Shown here piece after piece: positions 17,744 to 53,904 of a stretch of DNA of 64,000 bases. Positions within the stretch are counted from its first letter, which is position 1. Every line of letters begins with the position of its first letter. Below the pieces are notes generated by a model. That model saw only the letters and a program-made list of their open reading frames with translations, did not search any database and was not told the origin of the DNA. A program made the translations under genes and the position numbers. Source of the DNA: Magnetococcales bacterium (GTDB lineage Bacteria > Pseudomonadota > Magnetococcia > Magnetococcales > JADFWT01); NCBI GenBank assembly GCA_015233785.1, contig JADFWT010000001.1, positions 27,752 to 91,751 of the forward strand, given 5' to 3'.

Positions 17744-19642
17744 TCAGGTGAGAAACTCACGCCAGAGCGGCTCCAGAGAGTCCCGATAGTTCTCCCAGGC
17801 CATCACCGAACTGCTGTAGATGGGCTTACGAACCTGACTGACGCTGGCTGTGGTCACCACCCGCTTGTTCTTATGAAACGCCATGCAGCGCGCATCCCAC
17901 CCCAGGTTGCAGTGCTCCAGAAGCAGGCGGGTCTCCCGCTCCTGATCCGCCACCAGCGCCTCGTAAGAGAGATCATAAATTCTGCCGGGCGCCACCCGAT
18001 GCCAATGCGCCATCAACGACTGATAGGCCCGGTAGTAACGCCCCAACTCGGAGAGGTGGTAGGCGTAGGGATGCGGCTCGCTGAACAGGGTCTTGAAGAT
18101 GGAAAAACAGGTGCCCATGGGATGGCGCACGCAGTGGATAATCTTCGCCTTGGGCAGCGCCGAGAGAATCCATCCTATATGCATATAATTATTGGGCATC
18201 TTATCAACAATATAGGGCGACTCAGGCGCACAGGCATGCAGTGCCTCCAGATAGCGCTGGCCCATGGTGCGAATCTGCTCGCCACTCAAGGCCCGGCTAT
18301 CCTGCCGCCAGCTCACCGGCGGACCAACTCGCCCTCCTGAGTTATGAGAAATCTCCCGCCAGAGCTTCTGCACCTCCAGCGGCATCTGTACCCGCTCTCC
18401 GGCGCCATACACCTGCGGGTGGCTGGAGAGTATCTGCTCAGCCAACGTGGTGCCGGAACGAGGCATGCCGAGAATAAAAATCGGTGCTTTATCCTCAACA
18501 CCGAACCTCTGCCAGCGAGCCAGGAAATCGGCATCCATCATCTCTTGGAGAAATCCAAAGCGCGCCTCGTCCTCCGTGACAAAGTAGCGATGACGCGTCC
18601 GCTCCATGCGATTGCCCGCCGCCAGATGATCAAAGGCGCGACGATGATCCCCAAGATCCTCATGCAGCTTGCCTAACGCAAAGGCTAGATTGGTGCGCTC
18701 AAAACGGCTGATGCCGCGCTTGGTGTAGAGCCGCTGCATCGCCTCGGTATAATGATTGGTCTCCCGCATCCGCCCGCAGGAGACCATGTGCCGATAGGCG
18801 ATGGCGCAAGAGGGATCGATGGTGACCGCCTGCTCAAAAGCTGTCCGTGCCTCCTCCAGACGCCCCAACCCTTTGAGTGTCACCCCAAGATTGTTGTAGG
18901 TGGCGGCTTGTTGCGGGTTCAGCTCCAGTGCCTGCCGATAGCACACCTCCGCCTCTTCCAGTCGCTCCAGCATCCGTAATGTATTGCCGAGATTACCCAG
19001 GGCATCCGGGTAGTTGGGACGTATCTTCAACGCTTGACGAAAATGGTCGTGGGCCTCCTGGAAGCGGTTTTTGGAGACCAAAAGATTGCCCAAATTATTA
19101 TGGGCAGCAGCCAGAGTGGGCTTGTGATGAATGGCGCGCTCAAAACTGCGCATCGCCTCTTGAATCTGACCGCGATCCTTATGGGTCAGCCCGAGATTGT
19201 TGTGGGCCTCCGCCAGATCGGGCTTAAGAACAATCGCCCGATGCAAGGCCACCCCCGCCGCCTCCAAACGCCCCTGAAGACGCAACAGATGGCCCAAATT
19301 GTTATAGGCCATGGGGTTGTTGGGCTGTAGCGCCAACGCCTTGCGGTAGCAGGCCATGGCACCGCTTCTATCTCCCAAATCAAAACGCGTGATGCCAAGA
19401 TTATTCAGCGCCGGAGCCATCTTCGGATTGGCGGCCAGGGCATATTCAATCAACCGCCTGGCATCCTGCATCCGGCCCTGCTGCCGAGCAATGAGACCCT
19501 GTCTGTGCAGCGCCTCGGCATAGTGGGCGTCCGCCGGTGAGATGGCCTCAAATCGGGCCAGCGCTTCATCCAATGCCCCCTGCTGATGCAGCGCCATTCC
19601 CTGCTGAAAAATCGCCTGAAAGTTGGACGCCTGGGCCACCAT
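17744..19642 (-). CDS. TPR repeat protein fused to a sulfotransferase domain (TPST/RaxST-like PAPS-binding motifs)
   Basis: The ORF is open to 19714. I prefer ATG 19642 (MVAQASNF), which has GGGGGAG about 7 nt upstream. N-terminal TPRs are followed by FILGMPRSGTTLAEQIL (5'-phosphosulfate-binding loop) and IIHCVRHPMGTCFS (3'-phosphate motif region). Confidence 0.85.
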   Translation of the reverse strand: MVAQASNFQAIFQQGMALHQQGALDEALARFEAISPADAHYAEALHRQGLIARQQGRMQDARRLIEYALAANPKMAPALNNLGITRFDLGDRSGAMACYRKALALQPNNPMAYNNLGHLLRLQGRLEAAGVALHRAIVLKPDLAEAHNNLGLTHKDRGQIQEAMRSFERAIHHKPTLAAAHNNLGNLLVSKNRFQEAHDHFRQALKIRPNYPDALGNLGNTLRMLERLEEAEVCYRQALELNPQQAATYNNLGVTLKGLGRLEEARTAFEQAVTIDPSCAIAYRHMVSCGRMRETNHYTEAMQRLYTKRGISRFERTNLAFALGKLHEDLGDHRRAFDHLAAGNRMERTRHRYFVTEDEARFGFLQEMMDADFLARWQRFGVEDKAPIFILGMPRSGTTLAEQILSSHPQVYGAGERVQMPLEVQKLWREISHNSGGRVGPPVSWRQDSRALSGEQIRTMGQRYLEALHACAPESPYIVDKMPNNYMHIGWILSALPKAKIIHCVRHPMGTCFSIFKTLFSEPHPYAYHLSELGRYYRAYQSLMAHWHRVAPGRIYDLSYEALVADQERETRLLLEHCNLGWDARCMAFHKNKRVVTTASVSQVRKPIYSSSVMAWENYRDSLEPLWREFLT

Positions 19643-19717
19643 GACACGCTCCCCCTGCTGAAGTGATCGAAAAAGAGATATTAACACGCATGACGACGCG
19701 GTTGAATGCGACAATTA

Positions 19718-22087
19718 TCAATTTGTCGTCAACGCCTTAAAAACCTTCTCCGCACCAGGTGGAATGCTGGTGAGATGCAGCTGCAACGTCCCCGCCTCTT
19801 CATCCTGGGCCATCACCTTGCCGTAGAGCTGATCGGAGATAGAGAGACCATCGGCATCAAACAGCTCCAGTTGCAAATTGGTCAGACGCCGCGCCTTGAG
19901 ACGGGTTGCAATCTCCAAGAGCTTACCGTCCATGGCGCTGATACGACCGGCATGACGCGCCTTATCACTCCGTTTGCCCTCCAGAACCGCCATCATCACC
20001 TCCGGGCCATTCTCCAGAAACTTTAACTCAGGAGGCCTCGGCTCCGGCAACTGAATGCCGTAAAGGCCTCGAATACCGCCAATCAGGTAGATGGGAACCG
20101 GCTCGGGAACCCCCTTTAAGGAGACCCGCCATTCATCATCGATGCGGGCCAGATTGTTGCACCCCTTCAGGGTGGTCTCAGAGATCAACACCTGCCCACC
20201 AATGGTTTGCGACTCCACCCGTGCCGCCAGATTGATGGTCGCCCCCACGACGCCGTACTTGGCCCGCAGATCCGAACCGATATTTCCAGCTACCACCGAT
20301 CCGCTGTTGATGCCAATCCCCATGGCCGCTTCGGGAAAGCCACGAGCACCGAACTTGGCATTCACCTCCGGCATCGCTTTCTGCATCTCCAGGGCGCAGG
20401 CCACCGCCCGCTGGGGATCATCCTCATGGGTAACCGGCGCGCCAAACAGCGCCAGAATGCCATCGCCAAGGAACTCAATGATGGTGCCGCTATATTTCAG
20501 GATGATCTCGGTCATGCGCTCCAGATAGATGTTGAGCATGGAGATCACCTCTTCCGGCGGCAAGCGCTCGCTAATGGCGGTGAAGCCCCGCAGGTCGGAC
20601 ATCATCACCGTCACCTCCTTCTGCTCACCCCCCAGACGCAACCCCTCGGGTCGATCCAGAATCGATGCCACCACCTCATCGGACATATAGCGCCCAAAGG
20701 TCTTGCGAATAAACAGGTTGGCCCGATTCAGCCCCTCATTGAGGTGCTTCTGCTCAAACAACATATGCTCCAACTCTTTGTTGAGCTGACCCTTCTCCTC
20801 CGTGGCCTGCTCGGCACTCTCCAAAGCCTTCTGCAACTCCTCTTGCGTGTGTTTGCGCTCCACCGCCACCTGCAACACAAACGCCAGTTGGTCGATCACC
20901 TCACGCGCCTCATCGGTGATCTGTATCGCCCCTTCCAGATGGAGAAAAAAGAGCGCAAAAACAGTATCACGCCCCGGTGAGAAGAGCGGAATCAACAGTC
21001 GTGCGCCATCCAGATCTTCGGGAAACTGCTCCTCATAGCCATGCTGGTGGTGCACCTTCCAACTACTGCGATCCTGAGAGAAGTAACGCATGAACTGGAG
21101 GGGGAGCATCACCACTTCGCCCGCATAGCCGCTCTCGGCACTCAGACGAAGCCCCTGACCATTGTCGCGAAGGGTGTAGAACTCCATGCCGGCGGCGGGA
21201 AGCATTCGGCGAGTAATCTCCAGAAGCGCTTCCACAATCTGGTCAAACTCCCGGTGGGCAACCATCGCCTCTTTAATATCCCGCAACATATCGTTGAGCG
21301 TGGTCAGCCGTCGCACATCGGTACTATCTGCCGCTTTCAGATAGAGCCCGCAATCCAATTTTTTCAGGCGGCTGAAAATCTCGGGGACCAGGTGACCGGG
21401 AATAATGGAGCCGTGCTGGGGGGCTATCATGCCGAGCTCCAGCTTCTCCAGCTTCAAAAGCCCATTGAGCAGCACCTCTCGGCTAGGCATGTAGTGCTCG
21501 TGAAATGGGCGCATCGCCTCAAAATAGTCGGCATCCCGAGCCACCAATGTCCAGTCGTCGGTAAAGCCGCCAAACAGATCGCTGGAGAATAGAATGCGAC
21601 TCTCCTCATCATAGGTGCAGAACGCCCCAGGAAAGTGCAAATAGGGGGTGAAGACAAATTTCAGCCGACGACTGCCAAGATCAAGATGCCAGCCGTGATC
21701 CTGCTCGATACACTTTAATGGCATTTTGAGATCATAATGCTTAAGCAGTACGTTGGCCCGCCAATGGCTGAGAAGATAGGCATCATCCCGCGTCACCATG
21801 GCGTCAATGGTGGGCATGATGGCTGTGATGTCGGGATCCTGATGCTGGCAGAGAAAATATCGAATATTACTGAATTCGGTAATCTTCTTGATCTTTTCCA
21901 GGGTGTGATCAAAGGTGAGCTTGGAGCCGGGATCAAACAGAACCGATTGATCGCCGTTCTCAATCAGATAGGCGTGGCACTGAAAAGGATCCCCAGGAAG
22001 ATAGTGGCCAACCCACCAGGTGCGATCTGCAATCTCAATGGGATGATCGGCGGAGGCGTATTGAATGTGATCTAAAGGGTCGCTCAT
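19718..22087 (-). CDS. Class III nucleotidyl cyclase with N-terminal metallo-beta-lactamase/flavodiiron-like domain and GAF-like linker (cyclase 1)
   Basis: The ORF is open to 22171, but I prefer ATG 22087 (MSDPLDHIQY). The N-terminus reads WWVGHYL...CHAYLIENGDQSVLFDPG...LCQHQDPDITA...HFPGAF...SSDLFGG...APQHGSII. The catalytic domain reads VTVMMSDLRGFT...IIEFLGDGILALFGAP...KYGVVGATINLAARVES. Confidence 0.85.
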   Translation of the reverse strand: MSDPLDHIQYASADHPIEIADRTWWVGHYLPGDPFQCHAYLIENGDQSVLFDPGSKLTFDHTLEKIKKITEFSNIRYFLCQHQDPDITAIMPTIDAMVTRDDAYLLSHWRANVLLKHYDLKMPLKCIEQDHGWHLDLGSRRLKFVFTPYLHFPGAFCTYDEESRILFSSDLFGGFTDDWTLVARDADYFEAMRPFHEHYMPSREVLLNGLLKLEKLELGMIAPQHGSIIPGHLVPEIFSRLKKLDCGLYLKAADSTDVRRLTTLNDMLRDIKEAMVAHREFDQIVEALLEITRRMLPAAGMEFYTLRDNGQGLRLSAESGYAGEVVMLPLQFMRYFSQDRSSWKVHHQHGYEEQFPEDLDGARLLIPLFSPGRDTVFALFFLHLEGAIQITDEAREVIDQLAFVLQVAVERKHTQEELQKALESAEQATEEKGQLNKELEHMLFEQKHLNEGLNRANLFIRKTFGRYMSDEVVASILDRPEGLRLGGEQKEVTVMMSDLRGFTAISERLPPEEVISMLNIYLERMTEIILKYSGTIIEFLGDGILALFGAPVTHEDDPQRAVACALEMQKAMPEVNAKFGARGFPEAAMGIGINSGSVVAGNIGSDLRAKYGVVGATINLAARVESQTIGGQVLISETTLKGCNNLARIDDEWRVSLKGVPEPVPIYLIGGIRGLYGIQLPEPRPPELKFLENGPEVMMAVLEGKRSDKARHAGRISAMDGKLLEIATRLKARRLTNLQLELFDADGLSISDQLYGKVMAQDEEAGTLQLHLTSIPPGAEKVFKALTTN

Positions 22088-22424
22088 GACTAACGAACAG
22101 CTCCTGATTGCACAGTAAAGCTCTACCGGCACGACCACACTTTGCGCCGACGGACTTGCCTCCCCCCACAATCTGGCTGCATCAATTCATACCATGAAGC
22201 GAAGCCTTCCCCTCTTTCGGCCCCAGCATAACTCCTGCATGATTATGAACCATTTATTATTATTGTCGGATCATACAGAACATGAGATAAAACGACCACT
22301 TTTTTGTGACGTACCTTCCGGTTTCATCCATTGCAGACCCTGATGGTTCAGGAGAGACTACCCTCTACTTTCAGTTATGGAGCGACCTCCTGACAACCAC
22401 CCTTCAAGTCATTGATCCTCTACC

Positions 22425-24653
22425 ATGGCAACGCCTCCCACTCCCACGACACTCATTGAGCTATTCCACCTGGGCGTAGAACACCACCATGCCGGACGAC
22501 TCCCAGAAGCGGAGACACTCTACCGGCAGATTCTGGAAGCCGACCCCTTGCAGGCCGAAGTGTGGCATCAAATAGGCCTGCTTGCCTACCAGTTGGGCCA
22601 GCCCCAACAAGCGACCCAACTGATCGGAGAAGCCCTGCGCCTGCGCCCCGACGATGCCGCCGCCCATTGCAACATGGGCAACGCCTTGGCCGACTGCGGC
22701 GCGTGGGATCAAGCCGTGGCACACTTGCACCAGGCAACCACCTTGCAGCCCGCCATGCCGGAAGCCCATCTCAATCTGGGCAACACACTGCGCAGGCGCG
22801 GCGGACCAGGGGATCTGGAGGCCTCCCTGGAGAGCTGTCAAGCGGCCATCCGGCTGCGTCCAGCCATGCCGGAAGCCCACCTGAACTGTGGCAATGCCTT
22901 GAAAGCGTTGGCGCGTTACGATCAAGCCGTCACAGCCTTTGGCAGAGCGATCCGGTTGGCCCCCGATTATGCCGATGCCTACAGCAATCTCGGCAGCACG
23001 CAACAAGCGTTAGGCCAATTGGATGAGGCCATTGCCAATCATCATCATGCCATCTCCCTAAATCCCAACCAGGGACTCTTTCATGGAAATCTTGGCCATG
23101 CATTGCGGGAGAAAGGGCTACTTGAACAAGCACTTAAAAGCTTCCGCACCGCCGCCACACTGAGCCCGGACCAGGCCAAAGTTCATGACGATCTTGGTCA
23201 AATTCTCTCGCAACTGGCATGCCCAGACCAGGCCCTGGCCTGCTTTGAGACCGCCCTGAAACTGGAGCCGGATAGCGCTCACCTCCTCCAGCAGATGGCC
23301 CTACAACTCAACGATATGGGGCGTACCGAAGAGGCGCTGACATCGCTCCAACAAGCAGTGGCATTGGCCCCAGACCGCCCTGAACTACACGCCTCCTTGA
23401 TCTTTACCAAAGACATGACGCCGGGTATTGAGATACAGGCTCAACAAACAGAGCGACAACGCTGGGTGAAGCGCTACTGCTCCAAGGTCCATGCCGGGAC
23501 GCACCACCCTAACAATCCTGACCCGGCACGGCGATTACGAGTCGGCTATGTCTCTGCCGATTTTCATCTCCACTCGGCAGCCTCTACCTTCGGGGCCTGC
23601 CTGCTGCACTACGATAGAGATCAATTCGAACTGTACGCGTACGCCAACAACCGCACACGCCCCGATCAACCGGATGATGCCGTCACCGAAAAGTTTCGGC
23701 GCTCGGTGGACCACTGGCGGGATATCGCCCATCTGGACGATGATGCCCTGGCCACTTTGGTTCGCCGAGACCGCATTGATATTCTGGTGGATCTCTCCGG
23801 TCACTCCACCGGCAACCGGCTGGAGCTCTTCGCCCGGCGTCCAGCCCCTATTCAATGCACAGGCTGGGGCTACATCCAGGGAACCGGCATGAAGACCATC
23901 GACTATCTGATTACAGATCCAGTGATTCTTCCTCCGATTCAGCGTCCAACAATTACGGAAGAGGTACTGGATCTACCTTGCGGCGTGCATCTGCAACCCC
24001 TTGGAAAATGGCCGGAACCTGCGCCCATTCCAGCCTTGAAGCGTGGCTTCATCACCTTTGGAACCTTCCACCGCACCGACAAGATCAACGCCAAAACACT
24101 CAAGCTCTGGGCCAAGGTTTTGGCAGCGGTTCCCCATTCGAGACTTCTGATCAAAATTCCCAAAAATAGCACCGATTTTTTTGGGGGCTATTATCGGCAG
24201 AGCTTCAAGAGTCACGGCGTTGATCCTCAACGTATTGAGCTTTTAGGGGCCACCTCTCAATTTGATCATCTGGCCTGCTTCAATAAGGTGGATATCGCCT
24301 TGGACCCCACGCCGCACTGTGGCGGCGTTACATCGCTGGAGGCACTTCGCATGGGAACGCCGGTAGCAACGCTCTGGTGCGAGACCATCGCAGGCCGGCT
24401 CTCCGCATCATTTAACGCCACCCTGAACTTGGCATCCTGGACCGCAGAGTCCGAGTCGCAATTCATTGAGATTGTTAAGATAAAATCATCCGATATTTCA
24501 AACCTATCCAAGCTAAACAGCAGCCTTCGAGAGCGCTTTGACCGCTCTATCCTGGGAGATCATAAGCTCTATATGCACCATCTGGAGGCACTCTACCGGC
24601 AGATCTGGCAACGATGGGTAGCCGACCATCTCCCCAGCCATGACGCAAGCTGA
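22425..24653 (+). CDS. TPR-GT41 (OGT-like) glycosyltransferase, paralog 5 (subfamily B)
   Basis: 742-aa ORF with variant motifs RVGYVSADFHLHSAASTFGACLL and DIALDPTPHCGGVTSLEALRMGTPVATL. Confidence 0.85.
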   Translation: MATPPTPTTLIELFHLGVEHHHAGRLPEAETLYRQILEADPLQAEVWHQIGLLAYQLGQPQQATQLIGEALRLRPDDAAAHCNMGNALADCGAWDQAVAHLHQATTLQPAMPEAHLNLGNTLRRRGGPGDLEASLESCQAAIRLRPAMPEAHLNCGNALKALARYDQAVTAFGRAIRLAPDYADAYSNLGSTQQALGQLDEAIANHHHAISLNPNQGLFHGNLGHALREKGLLEQALKSFRTAATLSPDQAKVHDDLGQILSQLACPDQALACFETALKLEPDSAHLLQQMALQLNDMGRTEEALTSLQQAVALAPDRPELHASLIFTKDMTPGIEIQAQQTERQRWVKRYCSKVHAGTHHPNNPDPARRLRVGYVSADFHLHSAASTFGACLLHYDRDQFELYAYANNRTRPDQPDDAVTEKFRRSVDHWRDIAHLDDDALATLVRRDRIDILVDLSGHSTGNRLELFARRPAPIQCTGWGYIQGTGMKTIDYLITDPVILPPIQRPTITEEVLDLPCGVHLQPLGKWPEPAPIPALKRGFITFGTFHRTDKINAKTLKLWAKVLAAVPHSRLLIKIPKNSTDFFGGYYRQSFKSHGVDPQRIELLGATSQFDHLACFNKVDIALDPTPHCGGVTSLEALRMGTPVATLWCETIAGRLSASFNATLNLASWTAESESQFIEIVKIKSSDISNLSKLNSSLRERFDRSILGDHKLYMHHLEALYRQIWQRWVADHLPSHDAS

Positions 24654-24762
24654 TCGTGGAATCATAAGGCCCATCTCTTTAAACGACTGAAAAGAACGCT
24701 TAGGATGAGTGCCTATCGAACCCATAGACCGTTCACCACCGCTGGAATCATCCGAGCCCACC

Positions 24763-26988
24763 ATGCCCACATCGCCCCACTTGCCTACCCCGGAAGAAGC
24801 ACTCCAACGCGCCATCGAACACCATGAAGCGGGGCATCTCACGGATGCAGAAGCGCTCTATCGCCAACTCCTGACCACGCACCCCCAACACGCCATGGCC
24901 TGGCATCGACTGGGACTGCTGGCGCTTCAGGTGGGACAGCCCCAGCAAGCCTCCCAGTTTATCGGCGAGTCCCTGCGCCTGGAGCCCAACGATGTCGCCG
25001 CCCTCTGCAACATGGGCCATGCCCTGGCCAGCTTCGGTGAATTCGACACCGCCATCACCCATCTACAACAGGCCACAGCCCTGCAACCAAACATGCCCGA
25101 GGCCCACCTTAATCTGGGTGAATTCCTACGTCTACGAGGAGCCGTTGGAGATTTGACGGCGTCGGAAGCCAGTTGCAGAGAGGCCATCCGCCTGCGTCCC
25201 AGCATGCCGGAGGCACACAATAATCTTGGCACGCTCCTCAAAGAGAGAAAACGTTACGGTGAGGCGGTCGAGGCCTTTGAAAAGGCGCTCCGCTTGGCCC
25301 CGAAATATGCCGACGCCCACACCAATCTCGGCACGACCTATGAGGCAATGGGACGTCTGGACGAGGCGATTGCCAGCCACAAGAAGGCCATTGACATCGC
25401 CCCTGAAAGCGGTCTGTATCACAGCAATCTAAGCCATGCTCTGATGACCAAAGGAGATCTGAAAGCCGCCAGAGAAAGCGGCGAGATGGCGGTTAAGCTA
25501 CACCCCGATTTGGCAAAGATTCACGCCAACCTTGGGCAGGCCCATATTCGTCTCGGCAGGCCCGATCAAGCGCTCATCTGCTTTCAAAAGGCTACCGAGC
25601 TTGAACCCAATCACGCCACTTATCTCAACCAGATCGGTGCCAATCTGGCCGATATGGGGCGCTGCACGGAAGCACTGGAGCCCTTAAGACGTGCATCCGC
25701 CATGGATCCCGGCAACCCGGAACTACATAATGCGCTGATCTTCTTTCTGGATATGACCCCTGGCGTCCAAACCGGTGATCATCAGCAAGAGCGACAGCGA
25801 TGGGTGGAACGCTTCCTGGCGGACACGGTTCCGTTTGGAAAGCACCATAACGATCCAGACCCACAACGCCCGCTTCGGGTGGGGTATCTCTCCTCCGATT
25901 TTCACAGCCACTCGGCAGCCTCCACTTTCGGAGCCTGTCTGCTGCACTACGATCGAACGCAATATGAGCTGTTCTGCTACGCCAACAATCAGCAGGGAGT
26001 CGGTAAGTGCGAAGATGAGGTGACCAATCGATTCCGTCAGTCGGTGGATCACTGGCGAGAAATCTCCCATCTGGACGATGAGGAAGTGACCCAAATGATT
26101 CGCTCGGATTGCATTGATATTCTGGTGGACCTATCCGGCCACACCACCGGCAACCGGCTTCGGGTCATGGCCCGACGTCCGGCCCCGATTCAATGCACCG
26201 GCTGGGGCTATAATCTCGGCACCGGGCTCTCCGCCATCGACTATCTGGTGATCGACCCGATCATGCTCCCCCCGGAAGAGCGCCCCCTTTTTGCCGAACA
26301 AGCGATGGATCTCCCCTGCGGTATCCATCTGCAACCGTTAACCGATTGGCCTGAACCAGCTCCGCTCCCGGCCCTGACCCATGGTACCATCACCTTCGGC
26401 TCGTTTAACCGCACCTGCAAAATCAACCCGGAGTTGCTGGCCTTATGGGGCCGACTGCTGGTCGCTGTTCCCGAATCGCGCATGCTCTTCAAAATCCCCA
26501 AACTGGAGACCGACTTCTACCTCAACTACTATCGTGAGGTGCTGGCTTCCCACGGCGTGGAGCCGCAACGGGTGGAGGTGCTGGGATCTACTTCACAATA
26601 TGAGCATCTGGCAGCCTTCAACCAGGTGGATATCGCCCTGGATCCCATCCCTCAAGGAGGCGGCATCACCTCGCTGGAAGCACTGCGTATGGGCGTGCCG
26701 GTCCTGACGTTGAAATACCCCACCATCACCGGGCGTCTGACCGCTTCGTTCTGCCATGCTTTGGATTTGGAGGATTGGGTCGCAGAGCGCCCGGAGGCCT
26801 GGATCGCCATCGCCCAAAAAAAAGCCCAAGATCTCGATGCTCTGGCTGCGCTTCGACGGGGACTTAGAGTGCGCTTTGACGACTCCATACTCGGCAATCA
26901 TGCCCTCTATATGCACCACCTGGAGCGACTCTATCGACAGATGTGGAAACGCTGGTCGGCTGGCCAATCAGAGCGTGCCCAGCTTTAA
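24763..26988 (+). CDS. TPR-GT41 (OGT-like) glycosyltransferase, paralog 6 (subfamily B)
   Basis: The ORF is open from GTG 24709. ATG 24763 (MPTSPHLPTPEEALQRAIEHHEAG) fits paralog N-termini better. Motifs: RVGYLSSDFHSHSAASTFGACLL and DIALDPIPQGGGITSLEALRMGVPVLTL. Confidence 0.8.
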   Translation: MPTSPHLPTPEEALQRAIEHHEAGHLTDAEALYRQLLTTHPQHAMAWHRLGLLALQVGQPQQASQFIGESLRLEPNDVAALCNMGHALASFGEFDTAITHLQQATALQPNMPEAHLNLGEFLRLRGAVGDLTASEASCREAIRLRPSMPEAHNNLGTLLKERKRYGEAVEAFEKALRLAPKYADAHTNLGTTYEAMGRLDEAIASHKKAIDIAPESGLYHSNLSHALMTKGDLKAARESGEMAVKLHPDLAKIHANLGQAHIRLGRPDQALICFQKATELEPNHATYLNQIGANLADMGRCTEALEPLRRASAMDPGNPELHNALIFFLDMTPGVQTGDHQQERQRWVERFLADTVPFGKHHNDPDPQRPLRVGYLSSDFHSHSAASTFGACLLHYDRTQYELFCYANNQQGVGKCEDEVTNRFRQSVDHWREISHLDDEEVTQMIRSDCIDILVDLSGHTTGNRLRVMARRPAPIQCTGWGYNLGTGLSAIDYLVIDPIMLPPEERPLFAEQAMDLPCGIHLQPLTDWPEPAPLPALTHGTITFGSFNRTCKINPELLALWGRLLVAVPESRMLFKIPKLETDFYLNYYREVLASHGVEPQRVEVLGSTSQYEHLAAFNQVDIALDPIPQGGGITSLEALRMGVPVLTLKYPTITGRLTASFCHALDLEDWVAERPEAWIAIAQKKAQDLDALAALRRGLRVRFDDSILGNHALYMHHLERLYRQMWKRWSAGQSERAQL

Positions 26989-33354: not shown

Positions 33355-33361
33355 AAGAGAC

Positions 33362-44294: not shown

Positions 44295-44481
44295 CCCAAT
44301 GATTTATCCACCAAGGGATGATCCTGCTGATAATGTGCGATATCCTGTTTTATATGGACGACTGGCCTCTCCAGCAGCCTAAGGGTACCATCTGAACGAC
44401 GCAACGCCGAAGCGGGATTTGGATCCATCGGCAACGAACCGAACCACAGACACTCCCCTCCTGCATGAGGAGACCCGCTCA

Positions 44482-48018: not shown

Positions 48019-48373
48019 GCACCCCCGATCCCCCACAATTGCTCCCCATAGCCCATTTAGAGTTGCACGCCGCACCCGACAAATTGCTGATTACCGATTG
48101 CTTTAATGGGGCTGTTAACAATTTCTTATCAATTTTTACACTACCATAACATTGATCAAAGATGGGAACGATTCTCGATCATGGTCAATAATGGGCAATA
48201 ATTGGTAAATTCCAGCCCCGAATCCGCCCTTTTCACCTCTCTTCCGTTCCATTTGGAATGGCAACCACCGCGCCAATCGCGTAGCATGTGGATCATTATT
48301 ACCGGAGGGTAGCCATGACAGAGGCCATCATTCATTCCGTTGGCTTCATTCTATTAAACGAGGGGGAACCCCA

Positions 48374-48845: not shown

Positions 48846-50237
48846 ATGGATAGAGACCCTATGAAACGTCGCACGCCCCTCGCACGCCCTGGAATCCTGC
48901 TGGCCGTCATGCTGCTGGCCACCCCACTCACCACGGCCCAGGCCGATTGGAAAGAGAAACTGCAAGGTGCCGTGGACGCCACCATGGAGGTTGGCGGAAA
49001 AGCGCTGGATGCCTCCAAAGAGATCGGTGGCAAGGCCCTGGACAGCTCCATGGAGATGGGCGGAAAAGCGCTGGATGCAACCCGTGAGATGAGCCATAAA
49101 GCGCTCGATAAGACCCGCCAGACCCAAGAGGAACTCTCCCGTGGCGTCACCGACCTAAGCCGTTCACCAGAAGATGAAAACGCCCACTTTCAAGAGGTGT
49201 GGAACAGCTCCCTGGGCAAGCTGGAACAAGCTCTGGAGCAGTTCGATAAGATTGAATCTGCCCCTGAATCCAGCTGGTTCGGCACCGACAAAAAATCTGC
49301 ACGGACCGACTTCGAGGAGATCCTGAACGATCTCATCCAGATCCTGGATGACGAACGTATTGGATCCCTGCGTCAGGAGATCCATCAAAGAGAGAGCCGC
49401 ATCAAGGAGCTTCAAGACGACATCCGCCGCTACAAAGAGCAAAAAATTGCCGCTCCCGTGAGCCATATGGTGGAGACCACACGCGGCCAATATGAACAAA
49501 AAATCAAACAGAGTCGCCAAGCCATCACCGAAGAACGCCACGAGATCAATGGCATTAAACGGCGCATGCTGGTGGCCCTTGAGCAGATCGGCGTCCACCT
49601 CACCAAAGATCAACTCTCGGTGCTGCTGGCACGGGTGGACTCCAACGACATCATCCAGATGTCTGCGGTGTTCAACGTGCTCAAGGATATGACCTCCCAG
49701 TTGATGCAGTTGACCGCAGATTCCGGCGAAGATCTCACCGCTGCCCGGCGCTACTACGGCATGCATCTTATGCTGCTGGAGACAGTGGTATTCATGCAGA
49801 CCAAATATATGGACCAAATCGCCACCATCTACATCCCCGGCATCGACCGCATCGGCGATGAAACCCGCAAGCTCAACGCCGACACCCGACGACAGCTCCA
49901 CGCCGAAACCGACGCCAACCGTAAGCGACTCTACCAGCAGAATCTCCACTCCCAGAAGGTAACGCTGAAAGCCACCAAACTCTATTTGAACAACCTCAAG
50001 TCCCAACGCAATAAAGTGGACAAGGCCCGCCAACAGGCGATGAAAAACCGTGCTCTGGCCCGCAACACCTACCGAACCGTGCGAATCAGCGCTGAATTTC
50101 TCACCCTGTTTAAAGCAAGCCAGGAGAGCTTTAAGGCCATCATCAATCTTCAGGTGCCTGAGATTGTGCCGTTCGAAAATCTGGAGGTTCAAAAGAAGTA
50201 TGAGGAGCTATCCTCACGATTGGGAAGCGGCTCCTAA
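48846..50237 (+). CDS. Secreted/periplasmic coiled-coil protein of unknown function
   Basis: 463-aa ORF. It has a signal peptide (MKRRTPLARPGILLAVMLLATPLTTAQA) and four 11-aa GGKALD repeats. The rest is a long, heptad-like charged helical region. A second possible start is at 48861. Confidence 0.7.
   Translation: MDRDPMKRRTPLARPGILLAVMLLATPLTTAQADWKEKLQGAVDATMEVGGKALDASKEIGGKALDSSMEMGGKALDATREMSHKALDKTRQTQEELSRGVTDLSRSPEDENAHFQEVWNSSLGKLEQALEQFDKIESAPESSWFGTDKKSARTDFEEILNDLIQILDDERIGSLRQEIHQRESRIKELQDDIRRYKEQKIAAPVSHMVETTRGQYEQKIKQSRQAITEERHEINGIKRRMLVALEQIGVHLTKDQLSVLLARVDSNDIIQMSAVFNVLKDMTSQLMQLTADSGEDLTAARRYYGMHLMLLETVVFMQTKYMDQIATIYIPGIDRIGDETRKLNADTRRQLHAETDANRKRLYQQNLHSQKVTLKATKLYLNNLKSQRNKVDKARQQAMKNRALARNTYRTVRISAEFLTLFKASQESFKAIINLQVPEIVPFENLEVQKKYEELSSRLGSGS
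48984..49115 (+). repeat. Four tandem 33-nt (11-codon) repeats inside the secreted coiled-coil gene
   Basis: The units start at 48984, 49017, 49050 and 49083. They encode MEVGGKALDAS, KEIGGKALDSS, MEMGGKALDAT and REMSHKALDKT. Units 1 and 3 share the block GGCGGAAAAGCGCTGGATGC. Confidence 0.85.
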
Positions 50238-50261: not shown

Positions 50262-52163
50262 ATGAGATCCAATTCTTCTACAGCTTCTCAAGAGCCGACG
50301 GTTGATCAAACCGTTCAACGCGCCCTTACGCATCATCAGGCCGGAGAGCTGGCCGAAGCGGAGCAGCTCTATCGTCAGGTACTGAGTGCCGACCCCAAAC
50401 ATGCAGACGCCCTGCATCTGCTCGGCGTCATCGCCCAACAGGTGGGCCACCCCGAACAGGCGGTGGAGTTGATCCAAAAGGCGCTGCGCCACAATCCCCA
50501 GCAGGCCGAAGCCCACAGCAATCTCGGTAACGCCCTGTATGATCTGGGGCGTTTGAAAGAGGCGGCCCGCGCCTTTCGCAGGGCCATTATCCTACAGCCG
50601 GAATTTGCCAACGCCCACAGCAACCTCGGCAATGCCCTCCTGGGACTCAATCGTCCTGGAGAGGCCATGGCGTGCTGTCAAACGGCCCTGAAACTGGACC
50701 CCGCCTTTGCCGATGCCGAAAACACGCTGGGCAACGCTCACAAAGCGCTGGGAGAGCTGGACAAGGCCGCCCATCACTATCAACGCGCCATGGAGCTGGC
50801 CCCCCAACACCCGCTGGCCTCCTTTAATCTGGGCGGGGTGCTTCTCGATCAGGGACATCTTGAAGGCGCACTCTCCTGCTATCGAGACCGTCTGGCCATT
50901 CAATTTGACTTTCGCATGGCCCGCAGCTATCTCAACGCCTTGCTGTTTCAACCCCAGCTCGACCATGAGACGCTGTTTACCGAGCAGACGCGCCTGATCT
51001 CCCAGGCCATTGCCCTCCAACCGCCCTGCCCAGCCCCTTCCAAGCCAGTCAAGCCTCTTCCAGACTCGACCAACACGCCCCGTTTGAGAATCGGCTATCT
51101 CTCCTCCGACCTCTACGATCACCCGGTAGGCCGTAATGTACTGCCCCTTCTGGCGCACCACGATCACAGCCGTTTTGAAATTTTCTGTTATGCAGAACAC
51201 CCGCGCAGTGATCGCTTTAACGATGCACTCCGCCAATCTGCGGACCATTGGCGGGAGACGGCTGGATACTCCGATGGCGAGGTGGCCAATCAGATCCGGC
51301 AGGATAATGTGCAGATCATGGTCTACCTGGGAGGCTGCTTCAACGACAACCGCATTCTGGTTGCCAACTACCGTCCAGCCCCGGTGCAGATCAGCTTTCA
51401 CGGCGGGGCCAGTACCGGCCTTGAGAACATGGACTACTGGTTAAGCGACAGTGCCATCCATCCTCCATCAGATACCCGCGAGCAGTTCACAGAGACACTG
51501 CATCGACTCCCGGTATTCTACAACTATCCAGCACCTCGGGATGCCCCTCCCATCTCGCCGCTGCCCGCCGAGCGAAACGGCATGATCACCTTTGGCTCCC
51601 TCAACAATCCTGCCAAAATCAATGACGAAGTGATCGCCCTATGGTCGGAGATCCTGCATCAGGTTTCCGATGCAAAAATGCTGCTGAAGTTTCGCAATAT
51701 TTACGATAATCCATCGGTTCGGCAGCGTATGCTGGATGCCTTCGCTGCCCATGACATTCCCGAACAGCGCTTGATGTTCCATAGCGCCCTTGAGCAGCAG
51801 AACCAGCACCTGACGCGTTATCATGTGATCGATATCGCCCTGGACCCGTTCCCCTTCACCGGTGCCACCACCACCTTCCAGGCCCTCTGGATGGGCGTGC
51901 CGGTGGTCACACTGCTCGGGGATCGATTCATCAGCCGTATGGCCGGGGATATTCTTATCCATGGCGGATTTGAATCATGGGCCGTTAGTTCCAAAGAGAC
52001 ATATCGGGAGCGTGCGGTGGCGTTGGCGTCCGACTGGAAACGTCTGGCGGCGCTTCGCACCCAGATTCGCCAGCAACTGGCCGACTCCCCCATCTGTCAG
52101 GGGGCACCCTACGCCGCCTCCGTGGAAACCACTTTTGAAGCCCTCTGGAAGCAACGGAATTGA
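50262..52163 (+). CDS. TPR-GT41 (OGT-like) glycosyltransferase, paralog 11
   Basis: 633-aa ORF. Motifs: RIGYLSSDLYDHPVGRNVLPL and DIALDPFPFTGATTTFQALWMGVPVVTLLG. Confidence 0.9.
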   Translation: MRSNSSTASQEPTVDQTVQRALTHHQAGELAEAEQLYRQVLSADPKHADALHLLGVIAQQVGHPEQAVELIQKALRHNPQQAEAHSNLGNALYDLGRLKEAARAFRRAIILQPEFANAHSNLGNALLGLNRPGEAMACCQTALKLDPAFADAENTLGNAHKALGELDKAAHHYQRAMELAPQHPLASFNLGGVLLDQGHLEGALSCYRDRLAIQFDFRMARSYLNALLFQPQLDHETLFTEQTRLISQAIALQPPCPAPSKPVKPLPDSTNTPRLRIGYLSSDLYDHPVGRNVLPLLAHHDHSRFEIFCYAEHPRSDRFNDALRQSADHWRETAGYSDGEVANQIRQDNVQIMVYLGGCFNDNRILVANYRPAPVQISFHGGASTGLENMDYWLSDSAIHPPSDTREQFTETLHRLPVFYNYPAPRDAPPISPLPAERNGMITFGSLNNPAKINDEVIALWSEILHQVSDAKMLLKFRNIYDNPSVRQRMLDAFAAHDIPEQRLMFHSALEQQNQHLTRYHVIDIALDPFPFTGATTTFQALWMGVPVVTLLGDRFISRMAGDILIHGGFESWAVSSKETYRERAVALASDWKRLAALRTQIRQQLADSPICQGAPYAASVETTFEALWKQRN

Positions 52164-52167
52164 CCGG

Positions 52168-53904
52168 ATGACACCTATCGAAGAGCAGCCCCCGGAGAGA
52201 GAACAGCTCACCCTTGGTGAGGCCTATAATCAAGCTGTCGAACAGTTTAATGCGGGTCGCTTAAACGAGGTAGAACGGATCGGTTCCATCATCCTGCAGG
52301 CTGTTCCCACTCACCTTGAAACCATCAATCTCCTTGGTGTCACGGCCCAGACTCTTCAGCAACATGATCAGGCCGTTGCACAGTTCAGGCATGGGCTTGA
52401 GCTTAATGACCAGGTGGCTACGTTGCACTTTAATCTCGGCATTTCGCTCCAGGCCTTGGGGGCCACGCAGGCGGCCATGTCGGCCTTGCAATCTGCAGTT
52501 GCACTGGAACCGGACAATCCTCAATACAAGGAAACACTGCGCCGCCTCCAGGAGGCCCCCTCATCCGTACCTATACCTGATCAGGCCGACTCGGCAGCCA
52601 TTCAGAGAGGGCTTGATCTGCATCATGCCGGGCAGCTTGATGAGGCATCCGCCTGCTTTCAGGAGATTCTAAGACAGCACCCTGACCACGCCCCGGCTCT
52701 GAACAATCTCGGCAACGTACTCAGTCAGGCCAACCAACTCGAAGAAGCCGTGGCCCATTATCAAAAAGCCATTGCCATCCAACCCGATTCCCCGCATACG
52801 CACTTCAATTTGGGCAATGCCCTCTCCGGCATGAATCGACTGGAAGAGGCGGTGGCCAGCTATCAGCGAGCGATTACCCTTGATGGGCAGCTTGCAGAGT
52901 ACCACTACAATCTTGGCATAGTTGAAGAGAAACGCCACAACACACTGGAAGCGCTCACCTGTTATCAGACCGCCCTCCGCATCAAACCGGACTTTGCAGA
53001 GGCTAGAAAAGCGTATGAAACCTTTCTGAAGCAACAGGTTCCAAACTGGCACTTTGCCATGATGAACGATCTGCCGCGAAATGATGCCTACGAAGCGGCC
53101 ATCAAAGCAGCCGTCACCCCGGACTCAACGGTGTTGGATATTGGAACAGGTGGCGGCTTATTAGCCATGATGGCTGCCAAACATGGAGCCAAAAAGGTCT
53201 ATACCGTAGAGGTCGTCCCAATCATTGCCCAACTTGCCAGAGAGATTATCCAAAAAAATGGCTATGAAGAGGTGATTACGGTTCTCAACAAGGAGTCAAC
53301 TCTTCTTAAGATCGGGCAGGATCTTCCCCAGCGGGCCGACATTTTGGTCACGGAGACCTTTGATGTGGGACTGATTGGCGAACGGGCGATCTCATTCATC
53401 CAACACGCCCATGAACATCTGCTTAAAGAGAACGCCACCATCATTCCACAGCGCGCCGTGGTCTATGGCGCACTACTTGAAAGCGATTCGCTATACAAGA
53501 TGGGAAAAGTTGAGACGGTCTCCGGATTTGATCTCTCTCCGTTCAATATCTGCACAACGCCCTATATGCAACTACCCCTGAAAGACTACGCCCACCACTT
53601 TCTTTCAGACCGTTTTGAAATATTTGATTTTGATTTTGCCAATGGTGAGATCCAAGAAGAGCACAAGATGCTCTCCATCACGCCGACGCAATCAGGAACT
53701 TGCCACGCGGTTGCCTTCTGGTTTCGTCTTTTTTTGGACCAAAACCAACACTACGACACCTCCACCCAGCACAACCCGGACAACCATTGGCAACAGGCCA
53801 TTCACATCGTGGATGACCCCAGATCCGTACAGCCTGGTGAGCCGGTATCGTTGATAACCAGCCACGATAGAAAAACCATTCATTTGGCGCTGGATCAATC
53901 GTAG
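52168..53904 (+). CDS. TPR repeat protein fused to a protein arginine N-methyltransferase (PRMT)-like class I methyltransferase domain
   Basis: The ORF is open from 51862, but that extension overlaps paralog 11. I prefer ATG 52168 (MTPIEEQPPE), 4 nt after the upstream stop. After the TPRs come WHFAMMNDLPRNDAYEAAI, motif I VLDIGTGGGLL, VYTVE, a double-E-loop-like TETFDVGLIGE and a THW-loop-like NHWQQA. Confidence 0.8.
   Translation: MTPIEEQPPEREQLTLGEAYNQAVEQFNAGRLNEVERIGSIILQAVPTHLETINLLGVTAQTLQQHDQAVAQFRHGLELNDQVATLHFNLGISLQALGATQAAMSALQSAVALEPDNPQYKETLRRLQEAPSSVPIPDQADSAAIQRGLDLHHAGQLDEASACFQEILRQHPDHAPALNNLGNVLSQANQLEEAVAHYQKAIAIQPDSPHTHFNLGNALSGMNRLEEAVASYQRAITLDGQLAEYHYNLGIVEEKRHNTLEALTCYQTALRIKPDFAEARKAYETFLKQQVPNWHFAMMNDLPRNDAYEAAIKAAVTPDSTVLDIGTGGGLLAMMAAKHGAKKVYTVEVVPIIAQLAREIIQKNGYEEVITVLNKESTLLKIGQDLPQRADILVTETFDVGLIGERAISFIQHAHEHLLKENATIIPQRAVVYGALLESDSLYKMGKVETVSGFDLSPFNICTTPYMQLPLKDYAHHFLSDRFEIFDFDFANGEIQEEHKMLSITPTQSGTCHAVAFWFRLFLDQNQHYDTSTQHNPDNHWQQAIHIVDDPRSVQPGEPVSLITSHDRKTIHLALDQS

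Follow-up and report, generated by a model that had tools for sequence, protein, structure and literature searches.

Separate and probably old TPR fusions of glycosyltransferases, a sulfotransferase and an arginine methyltransferase at a Magnetococcales locus

The 64 kb window analyzed here, i.e. the whole stretch of Magnetococcales genomic DNA under study, encodes three kinds of enzymes headed by TPR arrays, namely 15 GT41 glycosyltransferases, one sulfotransferase (ST), and one protein arginine methyltransferase (PRMT). This raises the question whether a common head was shuffled onto three catalytic domains within the island, as a preliminary description had proposed, or whether separate fusions are assembled at this locus. 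Our results favor, with a probability of about 0.65, three separate and anciently fused kinds of TPR enzymes whose heads were not exchanged within the locus, and which probably belong to one pathway or act on related clients. The 15 glycosyltransferases would be old paralogs of the SPINDLY-like GT41 type, the ST one member of a very large bacterial family combining TPRs with a TPST-like PF13469 domain, and the PRMT one member of a bacterial family of TPR-headed, PRMT7/9-like arginine methyltransferases. Each gene would have taken over head and catalytic domain together.

Most extensively represented are the GT41 enzymes. On the plus strand, four tandem genes overlap or abut at 9082-17731 (9082-11358, 11355-13538, 13508-15652, and 15653-17731), a divergent pair occupies 22425-26988 (22425-24653 and 24709-26988), single paralogs lie at 30453-32444, 34704-37052, 39494-41599, and, directly upstream of the PRMT gene, at 50262-52163, and four further paralogs are found at 54546-62629 (54546-56837, 56910-58982, 58975-60723, and 60755-62629). 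The most divergent paralog is encoded on the minus strand (42114-44294). The proposed TPR fusion of these paralogs was confirmed. PF13844 was matched by all four of the 15 paralogs that were scanned (E 1e-38 to 1e-42; 132-146 bits, cut-off 25), and every paralog has 4-10 TPR units of 34-aa periodicity upstream of a catalytic domain that aligns to SPY and contains NNxxK[ILV] and DIALDPFPFxGATTT or close variants. The catalytic Lys and the G-x-T-T motif, which binds the nucleotide phosphate, presumably map to K842 and T921/T922 of human OGT. SPY (E 2.6e-70) and TtOGT (E 2.4e-67) align contiguously with the catalytic domain over its full length, but the match to human OGT is split into two stretches. 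The intervening domain of the metazoan OGT subtype is therefore absent, and the paralogs are of the SPY-like or bacterial rather than the metazoan OGT type.

SPINDLY, an O-fucosyltransferase of plants and protists, and bacterial GT41 OGTs (T. terrenum OGT, XcOGT, S. elongatus Ogt) likewise have a TPR superhelix fused N-terminally to a GT-B GT41 domain. These are encoded by one or two genes, in contrast to the 15 diverged paralogs at the locus described here, whose catalytic domains share 28-62% identity. Only the pair at 22425 and 24709 (62% catalytic and 56% head identity) consists of paralogs that are nearest to each other by both head and catalytic domain.

The ST gene (17744-19642, minus strand) encodes 632 aa comprising eight contiguous TPRs, a helical linker, and a TPST-like domain, and a protein identical to its product is present at NCBI for a Magnetococcales MAG (P0001). 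Pfam searches verified the described architecture, with matches to TPR_1 (E 6e-59) and to Sulfotransfer_3, PF13469 (aa 387-583; E 1.8e-50; 172.7 bits, cut-off 27). The array spans aa 8-279 (18827-19621, minus strand), with units starting at aa 8, 42, 76, 110, 144, 178, 212, and 246, each step being 34 aa. The catalytic domain, aa 387-583 (17894-18484, minus strand), contains a PRSGTT 5'-phosphosulfate loop and a RHPMGTCFS 3'-phosphate motif. PF13469, the PRSGTT loop, and the R-x-P...S 3'-phosphate motif are common to this protein, TPST1/2, and RaxST. Human TPST1 (5wrj) was the best PDB match, although the similarity is limited to E 3e-9, and a Gly-Glu in the ST is aligned with a Gly-Glu of TPST1 in this low-scoring alignment (39 bits). 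In TPST2, Glu99, which follows the PSB loop, is the catalytic base. Eukaryotic TPSTs are lumenal and anchored in the Golgi membrane, whereas the N-terminus of the window ST is the TPR array, with no hydrophobic segment and no membrane anchor of the type II kind, and the protein would be soluble. Nearly all of its best 120 matches are full-length TPR+PF13469 proteins. We found neither a characterized member of this very large bacterial family nor an NCBIfam model for it.

The PRMT gene (52168-53904, plus strand; 578 aa) starts 4 nt past the stop codon of the GT41 gene 50262-52163. A library protein (P0361) has the same length and is identical across aa 1-175. In this case, too, the architecture was borne out by Pfam, with matches to TPR_1 (E 4.6e-37), PrmA (aa 312-395; E 8e-10), and the PRMT_C beta-barrel, PF22528 (aa 428-564; E 4e-9; 36.9 bits, cut-off 27). 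The head of seven repeats is bipartite. Block A (about aa 13-118; 52204-52521, plus strand) comprises a cap and two TPRs and is followed by a linker (about aa 119-140; 52522-52587, plus strand) that interrupts the 34-aa periodicity and is the hallmark of this head type. Block B (aa 141-276; 52588-52995, plus strand) has four TPRs. Across the linker, consecutive units start 57 aa apart, compared to 50-62 aa in 21 representatives and in three genes of a related Magnetococcales MAG (locus L003). No such break occurs in the whole ST protein or in the first four repeats of the window GT41s, where the steps are about 34 aa. The preliminary description had the PRMT protein open with the motif IQRGLDLHHAGQLDEASACFQEIL. 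In fact, this motif is located at aa 141 and forms the first repeat of block B.

Block B is in register with the complete 150-aa head of a 439-aa bacterial TPR-PRMT family (query 145-280, subject 6-141), and TPR-PRMT proteins are present in many bacteria. The catalytic module (53035-53901, plus strand) contains motif I VLDIGTGGG, the double-E loop ETFDVGLIGE, and an NHW loop of the THW type, all of which align with mouse PRMT7, as well as the beta-barrel. Among the PDB matches were PRMT7 (4c4a, E 6e-51) and PRMT9 (6pdm, E 8e-48). The PRMT9-like chain 8rbk_A gave a single alignment spanning the junction of TPRs and catalytic module (query 209-551, chain 51-426), and the aligned part of the head consists of the last two TPRs of block B and the junction. 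PRMT9 and PRMT7 are type II and type III protein arginine methyltransferases of animals. As in the window PRMT, the TPRs of PRMT9 directly precede the catalytic module, but the head of the window protein is longer and bipartite. Furthermore, PRMT7 and PRMT9 combine an active module and a pseudo-module in tandem, whereas the window PRMT ends after a single module; both halves of PRMT7 and of PRMT9 align to one and the same region of it.

By analogy with OGT, SPINDLY, FlmG, and PRMT9, the enzymes are expected to be soluble and cytoplasmic, with a TPR superhelix that selects protein clients and a C-terminal domain that would transfer sugar, sulfate (from PAPS), or methyl groups (from SAM). Reactions typical of the three families are O-glycosylation of protein Ser/Thr with UDP-GlcNAc or GDP-Fuc, sulfation of Tyr in proteins or peptides, and methylation of protein arginine. 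In FlmG of Caulobacter, client selection is the task of the N-terminal TPR domain, and the C-terminal transferase domain, which is separable from it, modifies flagellin (PMC7591256); head swaps have been shown to retarget this modification. A further precedent for TPR-guided client choice is S. elongatus Ogt, which acts on pilin (PMC9306852). FlmG follows a modular logic like that of the window enzymes, but belongs to another catalytic family and uses another sugar. Enzymes of the FlmG type bind flagellin through their TPR domain and are linked to genes for flagellin and nonulosonic acids. The scanned window ORFs included no flagellin gene, and a nonulosonic-acid pathway was likewise not seen in the window.

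Genes for TPR-PRMT, TPR-ST, TPR-GT41, and TPR-methyltransferases form repeated clusters in several unrelated bacteria, the foreign GT41 genes having been recovered with an HMM made from the 15 window GT41 catalytic domains. TPR-PRMT genes were located near TPR-ST or TPR-GT41 genes at 7 out of 23 loci, in contrast to 0 out of 57 loci with head-less PRMTs (Fisher p = 8e-5). The combination of the three enzymes had been regarded as unusual, but a Thiotrichaceae MAG contains five consecutive genes encoding TPR-ST, TPR-methyltransferase, TPR-GT41, TPR-ST, and TPR-PRMT. Clustered TPR-headed enzymes may work together, and one might speculate that they share clients.

Clusters of up to five consecutive TPR-headed enzyme genes (L018; also L082 and L083) would also be compatible with heads that do not select clients but assemble the co-encoded enzymes into a complex, or that mediate autoinhibition or oligomerization. 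In this case, clustering would reflect complex formation. The long superhelical arrays of 4-10 repeats could dock mutually, and the TPRs of SPINDLY and OGT mediate dimerization too. Nevertheless, to our knowledge TPRs bind the substrate protein in every characterized relative (OGT, SPY, FlmG). Moreover, the heads within the clusters L018 and L045 share only 20-36% identity, a divergence more in keeping with different partners than with a shared docking surface. Considering also the binding of the substrate protein by the TPRs of FlmG (PMC7591256), we regard this explanation as unlikely.

An alternative would be substrates that are not proteins or not made by the ribosome, e.g. glycans of the cell surface, lipids, or peptide natural products; the resemblance to eukaryotic protein-modifying enzymes would then be one of fold only. 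PF13469 includes polyketide sulfotransferases, and the CurM enzymes 4gbm and 4gox were also among the PDB matches of the ST protein. Links to operons for peptide secondary metabolites have been described for PRMT-like and sulfotransferase domains of bacteria (PMC3417536; PMC2938197). L082 and L083 are flanked by genes for sugar-nucleotide enzymes (NTP-transferase, epimerase), GT2, and PMT-like membrane proteins, so that glycan rather than protein substrates would fit as well. In addition, the window encodes two enzymes of the FkbM and B12-radical-SAM kinds without TPR heads, i.e. an FkbM-family methyltransferase (44419-45354, plus strand; PF05050, E 2e-17; TIGR01444) and a B12-binding radical SAM enzyme (26985-28469, minus strand; profile matches). 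On the other hand, the nearest solved relatives modify proteins, namely TPST1/2, PRMT7/9 (E 1e-48 to 1e-51, complete double-E loop), and SPY and TtOGT (E about 1e-70), and TPR arrays are protein-binding modules. Furthermore, no NRPS, PKS, or glycan-polymerization genes were seen among the scanned window ORFs of at least 150 aa. Non-protein substrates therefore appear doubtful.

The reading of three separate, old fusions draws on the comparison of the heads. The preliminary description considered the ST and PRMT heads to be of the same style as those of the GT41 paralogs, based on a cap pattern, HHQAGxLxxAExxYRQIL. The first repeats of the 15 GT41s share a mean identity of 47%. By comparison, unit 1 of the ST shares a mean of 23.5% with them, less than 92 out of 107 foreign sulfotransferase first repeats, which reach up to 50.8% mean identity, and the PRMT motif IQRGLDLHHAGQLDEASACFQEIL shares 32%. 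Foreign sulfotransferases thus agree with the pattern better than the local ST does, and the pattern does not hold as a link between the local genes. Both motifs are cap-type first repeats, a generic trait of such arrays. On the DNA level, the ST and PRMT genes matched the GT41 genes only over 87 nt or less, at about 70% identity and with E values no better than 5e-6. By contrast, matches among the GT41 paralogs are at 65-82% identity.

The best match of the ST head was that of its foreign ortholog P0003 (57% over 333 aa; 55% over the 271 aa of pure TPR). Local GT41 heads first appeared at ranks 89-107 in this search, whose ranking is biased toward ST heads since the foreign set was chosen for its resemblance to the full-length ST protein. 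The ST array showed a median identity of 34.4% to the local GT41 arrays and of 38.9% to the foreign ST arrays other than P0003; apart from this ortholog, the foreign ST arrays are barely closer to it than the local GT41 arrays are. As the GT41 heads are themselves only 27-56% alike (median 35.5%), identity alone does not distinguish the ST (34%) and PRMT (32%) heads from a GT41 head that has strongly diverged. The head phylogeny that had been suggested supported only the grouping of ST with P0003 (89% bootstrap) and of the GT41 pair at 22425 and 24709 (95%). Backbone support was 3% or less, the PRMT head was unplaced, and the local GT41 heads were not monophyletic. In proteins whose heads are closest to a local GT41 head, the attached domain is GT41, SAM methyltransferase, 2OG-oxygenase, or GT9, or there is no additional domain. 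Engineered consensus TPR proteins were the top PDB match of both the full-length PRMT protein and the GT41 paralog starting at 11355, and match the window heads at least as well as the local heads match one another. What the window heads have in common is a consensus-like TPR array opened by a cap-type repeat, and this accounts for their resemblance. The heads of the three enzyme types fall into unrelated lineages whose similarity does not go beyond the generic TPR consensus, an outcome that the preliminary description itself had named as refuting its proposal. No sign of shuffling was seen within the island, and each window fusion, an architecture that is widespread, is probably old and arrived whole.

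Recent shuffling of one head within the island, which would have provided a shared scaffold and shared clients, is highly improbable given the low cap identities, the short DNA matches, the grouping of the ST head with a foreign one, the good match of engineered TPRs, and a bipartite PRMT head found in no local GT41, even though cap-type first repeats and consensus-like arrays are common to all three enzyme types, the PRMT gene closely follows a GT41 gene, and real head sharing of this kind occurs in a related MAG.

The latter case is found at L003, where three adjacent genes encode GT9-like, PRMT, and GT41-like proteins that share one bipartite head. Identity among these heads is 56% at the protein level and 68% at the DNA level (over 1,140 nt), and the next-best class reaches 42%. 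This trio served as a positive control, indicating that our approach picks up genuine head sharing. Its N-termini were also the best matches of block A of the window PRMT (39-42% identity, E 1e-26 to 1e-27; next match E 1e-17). The bipartite head type was seen on at least six catalytic families, including GT41, ST, radical SAM, and methyltransferase. Hence, the idea of interchangeable TPR heads failed inside the window but holds elsewhere, and heads have demonstrably been swapped between TPR enzyme families over longer evolutionary times. Repeated clustering and head swapping make it probable that enzymes of the window type serve a single pathway or have related clients.

Some side genes may be mentioned. 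The B12-binding radical SAM class, represented in the window by a head-less gene, is fused to the bipartite TPR head elsewhere. In systems of the RaxX-RaxSTAB type, the sulfotransferase gene is accompanied by genes for an ABC exporter with a peptidase domain, a membrane-fusion protein, and a secreted precursor that contains Tyr. The window encodes a C39-domain ABC exporter (2080-4503) and a protein of the HlyD type (4490-6373), 10 kb from the ST gene and on the opposite strand. In the C39 domain, the catalytic Cys is apparently replaced, with QSG at the N-terminus as judged by eye. An acidic ORF with 14 Tyr, a putative gene, adjoins the exporter and HlyD-type genes.

The TPR fusion architectures noted in the preliminary description are real, as judged by Pfam domains and motifs. 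An N-terminal TPR array is combined with a C-terminal GT41 domain (PF13844) in 15 ORFs of the window. They are located on the forward strand at 9082-11358, 11355-13538, 13508-15652, 15653-17731, 22425-24653, 24709-26988, 30453-32444, 34704-37052, 39494-41599, 50262-52163, 54546-56837, 56910-58982, 58975-60723, and 60755-62629, and on the reverse strand at 42114-44294. PF13844 was matched with E-values of 1e-38 to 1e-42 in the four paralogs scanned with Pfam, and the conserved GT41 motifs, including the Lys motif and the G-A-T-T-T motif, were found in all 15. The TPR-sulfotransferase (17744-19642, reverse strand) carries Sulfotransfer_3 (PF13469, E 1.8e-50, aa 387-583) behind its TPRs and is a 100% match to P0001, an NCBI protein of a Magnetococcales MAG annotated just as 'tetratricopeptide repeat protein'. 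In the TPR-methyltransferase, hereafter PRMT (52168-53904, forward strand), the TPRs are followed by PrmA (E 8e-10) and PRMT beta-barrel (PF22528, E 4e-9) matches. Hydrophobic N-terminal segments are absent from these focal proteins, and the catalytic motifs of the enzymes are intact. GC content is even across the window (0.49-0.60), large ORFs predominate, and gene spacing is tight: the PRMT gene starts 4 nt past a GT41 stop, and tandem GT41 genes overlap or abut. The window also encodes an FkbM methyltransferase (44419-45354, forward strand).

The nearest solved relatives of the sulfotransferase domain are human TPST1 and TPST2 (5wrj, E 3e-9). The PRSGTT 5'-phosphosulfate loop and the RHP...S 3'-phosphate motif are matched, and in this low-scoring alignment a Gly-Glu lines up with the catalytic base position. 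The PRMT domain matches mouse PRMT7 (4c4a, E 6e-51) and PRMT9 (6pdm, E 8e-48) and contains motif I (VLDIGTGGG), the double-E loop (ETFDVGLIGE), and the NHW loop. It is a single module, whereas PRMT7 and PRMT9 are tandem module pairs. The catalytic domain of the GT41 paralog 11355-13538 aligned end to end with Arabidopsis SPINDLY (SPY; E 2.6e-70) and Thermobaculum OGT (E 2.4e-67), and with human OGT in two pieces only (E 1.7e-38); the enzyme is therefore of SPY-like or bacterial type, without the intervening domain of metazoan OGT. Calling these modules eukaryote-like is fair with regard to their folds, yet each of the three families is also well populated by bacterial members. Of the best 120 matches to the sulfotransferase, nearly all are TPR+PF13469 proteins over their full length (sources include methanotrophs, Burkholderiaceae, and Desulfobacteraceae), and relatives of the window PRMT occur in at least 534 loci of a one-genome-per-species collection. 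NCBIfam holds no family or model for any of the three fusion types. The window proteins are uncharacterised members of catalogued architectures.

It had further been suggested that a single TPR head was shuffled within this island onto OGT-like, TPST-like, and PRMT-like modules. For comparison, the proteins were split into heads and catalytic parts, and 34-aa TPR units were located with an HMM built from these data. In an all-versus-all BLAST of heads, whose ranking is biased by the choice of foreign sulfotransferases with the whole protein and by a sulfotransferase-specific linker included in the sulfotransferase 'head', the latter was closest to the head of P0003, its ortholog in another MAG (57% over 333 aa), and the first local GT41 head followed at rank 107 (150 bits, 34%). 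Local GT41 heads matched foreign sulfotransferase heads (43-46%, up to 248 bits) better than the local sulfotransferase head (142 bits, 36%) and the local PRMT head (105 bits, 30%). The bias was addressed by using pure TPR arrays as well as cap-only and three-repeat comparisons, the cap being the first repeat. As a pure array, the sulfotransferase head is 55% identical to P0003, with medians of 38.9% to other foreign sulfotransferases and 34.4% to the local GT41 paralogs. The 15 GT41 caps share a mean mutual identity of 47%; mean identity to them is 23.5% for the sulfotransferase cap and 32% for the PRMT motif of the preliminary description. Foreign sulfotransferase caps reach a mean of 35% and a maximum of 50.8% (e.g. 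IRQALEHAVQHHTAGRLSEAESIYQQILQAEPNQ in the protein P0033), and 92 out of 107 resemble the local GT41 caps more than the local sulfotransferase cap does. At the DNA level, no similarity between the sulfotransferase or PRMT genes and the GT41 genes was detected beyond stretches of at most 87 nt at about 70% identity; among the GT41 paralogs, identity is 65-82% over hundreds of bases.

A neighbour-joining tree of the first three repeats (capped distances, 119 taxa, 200 bootstraps) grouped the sulfotransferase with P0003 (support 89%) and left the PRMT head unplaced (3% or less). The smallest split with all 15 local GT41 heads takes in 100 of the 119 taxa, and the pair 22425-24653/24709-26988 (95%) is the sole supported local clade. 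By caps, DNA, arrays, and head tree, the sulfotransferase and PRMT heads are not the same as those of the GT41 proteins, so that the preliminary observation holds in part. Domain shuffling in this island was therefore abandoned as an explanation, since the heads derive from unrelated lineages. The GT41 paralogs themselves are old duplicates; their catalytic identity of 28-62% (median 48%) is weakly correlated (Spearman 0.33-0.40) with their head identity of 27-56% (median 35.5%).

The best PDB match of both the full-length PRMT (E 4e-79) and the GT41 paralog 11355-13538 (E 4e-112) is the engineered consensus TPR protein 9qhb. Individual sulfotransferase repeats are 32-53% identical to the best of about 115 local GT41 repeats and likewise 32-53% to the family consensus repeat. 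Searching 5.8 billion proteins with the head of 11355-13538 alone returned heads of 31-50% identity. By hand count, these were fused to GT41 (19), class I SAM methyltransferase (43), TylF-type methyltransferase (5), 2OG-Fe oxygenase (8), and GT9 (7) domains, or to nothing else. Consensus-like TPR arrays look alike by eye and call for caution: real relatives score below engineered consensus TPR proteins, so that a shared module cannot be deduced from similar motifs.

The head of the window PRMT is bipartite. Three repeats (block A, the cap and two detected units) are followed by a linker off the 34-aa period and four further repeats (block B), with repeat starts at aa 50 and 84 and then at 141, 175, 209, and 243. 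This break is absent from all 15 local GT41 heads and from the sulfotransferase head. Block B (aa 145-280) can be aligned in register along the full 150-aa head of a bacterial TPR-PRMT family of about 439 aa. The nearest catalytic relatives (46-54%) are mostly TPR-headed, and the remoter ones (about 309 aa) are head-less. A single alignment with the PRMT9-like chain 8rbk_A (query 209-551, chain 51-426; window 52795-53821) begins in the last two TPRs, crosses the junction, and continues in the catalytic domain (KPDFAEARKAY...VPNWHFAMMND versus NPDFNDAKENF...VERWHFIMLND). Block B register, catalytic relatives, and junction alignment together mark the TPR-PRMT fusion as old and of PRMT9 type. The junction alignment suggests that the PRMT9 architecture is older than animals or was acquired from bacteria. 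TPR-headed TPST-like sulfotransferases constitute a widespread, uncharacterised bacterial family; the TPR-headed PRMT7/9-like family is rarer, and its junction match to PRMT9 bears on the origin of PRMT9-type enzymes.

Block A is nearest to the N-termini of three proteins of L003, a locus in the Magnetococcales MAG nJSWbin3 (39-42%, E 1e-26 to 1e-27 versus 1e-17 for the next match). A HMMER scan of 1.84 billion representatives with PRMT aa 1-175 yielded 48 collinear N-terminal matches among the best 150 examined, and in 21 out of 21 checked the bipartite break was present (step of 50-62 aa). The C-terminal domains behind these heads were GT41 (27), PF13469 sulfotransferase (3, and 1 more found by Pfam), PRMT (2), radical SAM (2), class I methyltransferase (1), and several GT9-like domains, the rest being unknown. 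The occurrence of one head type on several catalytic domains shows that heads have been swapped between exactly these families over evolutionary time, yet not within this window.

Scanning one genome per species with aligned PRMT catalytic domains yielded 80 loci. The closest were found in magnetotactic or related organisms: an alphaproteobacterial MAG (59%), L003 (56%), and L004 (53%), the latter from Magnetovibrio blakemorei MV-1, a named strain and not a MAG, which possesses a TPR-PRMT. In L003 the same bipartite head is carried by three adjacent genes coding for a GT9-like protein (1456-3639), a PRMT (3688-5805), and a divergent GT41 protein (5856-8741). Identity between the PRMT and GT41 heads is 56.4% over 401 aa, and each shares 44-49% with the head of the GT9-like gene. 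DNA identity of the heads is 67.8% over 1,140 nt. The next-best head class attains just 42%. The C-terminal domain of the first protein has no match in Pfam or PDB and was classified as GT9-like solely because of its similarity to TPR proteins with PF01075 (E 1e-12 to 1e-24). Since head sharing in L003 was detected by the same comparisons as applied to the window, it serves as a positive control that the method finds sharing where present. This natural head swap may be regarded as nature's experiment on whether heads choose clients.

Of the PRMT ORFs in these 80 loci, 23 carry two or more TPRs and 57 are without detected TPRs. A TPR-sulfotransferase or GT41 neighbour within 10 kb was found for 7 of the 23 and for none of the 57 (Fisher p = 8e-5; p = 3e-4 once a duplicate is removed), a count in which L032, with a sulfotransferase neighbour and a PRMT ORF cut at the contig end and lacking detectable TPRs, sits uncounted in the latter group; taken as a head-less case it changes the result to 7/23 versus 1/57. 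In a Thiotrichaceae MAG (L018, 798-10864) five successive TPR-headed enzymes are encoded, namely sulfotransferase, class I SAM methyltransferase, GT41, sulfotransferase, and PRMT, and L019 shows the same arrangement. A TPR-sulfotransferase gene is located directly upstream of a TPR-PRMT gene in three alphaproteobacterial loci (L045, L049, and L056), of which L045 additionally has a TPR-TylF methyltransferase. The locus of the closest sulfotransferase ortholog (L001) contains two GT41 genes at 1.4-3.4 kb, and tandem arrays of four TPR-sulfotransferase paralogs and one TPR-GT41 each are present in L082 (2112-20691) and L083 (3771-21964), flanked by sugar-nucleotide and GT2 genes, among them genes for a nucleotidyltransferase and an epimerase, and by genes for GDSL-type and PMT-like membrane proteins. 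At two further sulfotransferase loci neighbours of TPR-GT41 or sulfotransferase type are absent. Clustering of TPR-PRMT, sulfotransferase, GT41, and methyltransferase genes is thus non-random in Alpha- and Gammaproteobacteria and Magnetococcales, which suggests one pathway. Heads within L018 and L045 are dissimilar (20-36%; 20-29% among those of L018). The preliminary interpretation is supported in part: shuffling did not take place in the island, yet head exchange among these families and their non-random clustering are real elsewhere.

The GT41 and sulfotransferase heads of L082 and L083 are 54-61% identical; a specific exchange was dropped as explanation, as their identity to heads of unrelated architectures from other samples equals this value (51-62%). 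Genes next to these arrays also include one for a 991-aa protein, a possible client, in which Flg_new repeats are combined with an Lcl_C domain. At L001, an uninterrupted TPR-GT41 ORF of 652 aa (3593-5548, reverse strand) corresponds in the public record to one shorter gene on each strand, 3590-4417 (-) and 4775-5563 (+), probably a gene-calling error.

Given the head exchange and clustering elsewhere, a functional link among these enzyme families is plausible. By analogy with OGT, SPY, FlmG (PMC7591256), PRMT9, and the S. elongatus Ogt acting on pilin (PMC9306852), FlmG and Ogt being precedents for client choice by TPRs, each TPR superhelix would pick protein clients for its own transferase domain. 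Different heads would then mean different clients, or different sites on clients, and the clustered enzymes would belong to one pathway. Alternatively, the heads may serve to bring the enzymes together in a complex, or the enzymes may act on glycans or peptide natural products. Clusters such as those of the window, L018, L003, and L045 may even encode a combinatorial bacterial protein-modification toolkit with interchangeable TPR heads and common cytoplasmic or exported clients, possibly under cyclic-nucleotide control in the window, with bacterial TPR-PRMTs as source of the animal PRMT9 architecture, in parallel to the kinship of TPR-GT41 proteins with SPY and OGT. To this joint reading we give a chance of roughly one in five. 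If it were true, glycosylation, sulfation, arginine methylation, other methylations, and radical-SAM chemistry would be steered by heads.

The open-access literature contains precedents (FlmG, Ogt, SPY, Aravind-group surveys), but nothing was found there on TPR-enzyme clusters or on TPR-headed bacterial PRMTs or sulfotransferases. A derivation of eukaryotic PRMTs and tyrosine sulfotransferases from bacterial peptide-modifying radiations was proposed earlier on comparative grounds (PMC2938197, PMC3417536). The new elements are the cluster-level pattern and the PRMT9-type junction.

Several further genes of the window deserve mention. Between the genes for TPR enzymes lie others for cyclic-nucleotide signalling. 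Class III nucleotide cyclases are encoded three times (19718-22171 and 37075-39195 on the reverse, 28760-30388 on the forward strand), once with an ODP/metallo-beta-lactamase domain and once with two GAF domains. The others are a GGDEF and EAL domain response regulator (45382-48075, reverse strand) and an HlyD-type protein with a cNMP-binding domain (4490-6373, forward strand), partner of a C39-domain ABC exporter (together 2080-6373). A gap of 75 nt separates the start of the sulfotransferase gene from a cyclase gene upstream on the same strand. The B12-binding radical SAM enzyme of the window (26985-28469, reverse strand) is most similar to the Sden_1168 P-methyltransferase family, at 218.8 bits far under the cut-off of 575; in other organisms bipartite TPR heads are fused to radical SAM domains (P0413, P0407). 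GT41 paralog 11355-13538 scores 229.9 bits against the NCBIfam equivalog 'magnetosome protein MamA' (cut-off 200), solely from summed TPR repeats, and in this way MamA may be mis-annotated in magnetotactic genomes. A 463-aa protein (48846-50237, forward strand) with a hydrophobic N-terminal segment and long charged repeat-like stretches (KALDxSxExGGKALD) has no match in Pfam or NCBIfam. A candidate ORF of 331 aa (6600-7595, reverse strand), without a family match, adjoins the exporter genes. It lacks Lys, Arg, Cys, and Trp, comprises 62 Asp/Glu, 59 Gly, 50 Pro, and 14 Tyr, and includes the His/Asp run HDDDDDDDHDDDGGDHGHHGHH; Tyr occurs several times in acidic contexts (e.g. EADYVDP, GDYPPQQD, DDYLPQQD). 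Its putative product may be exported by type I secretion and may be a candidate for Tyr sulfation or metal binding.
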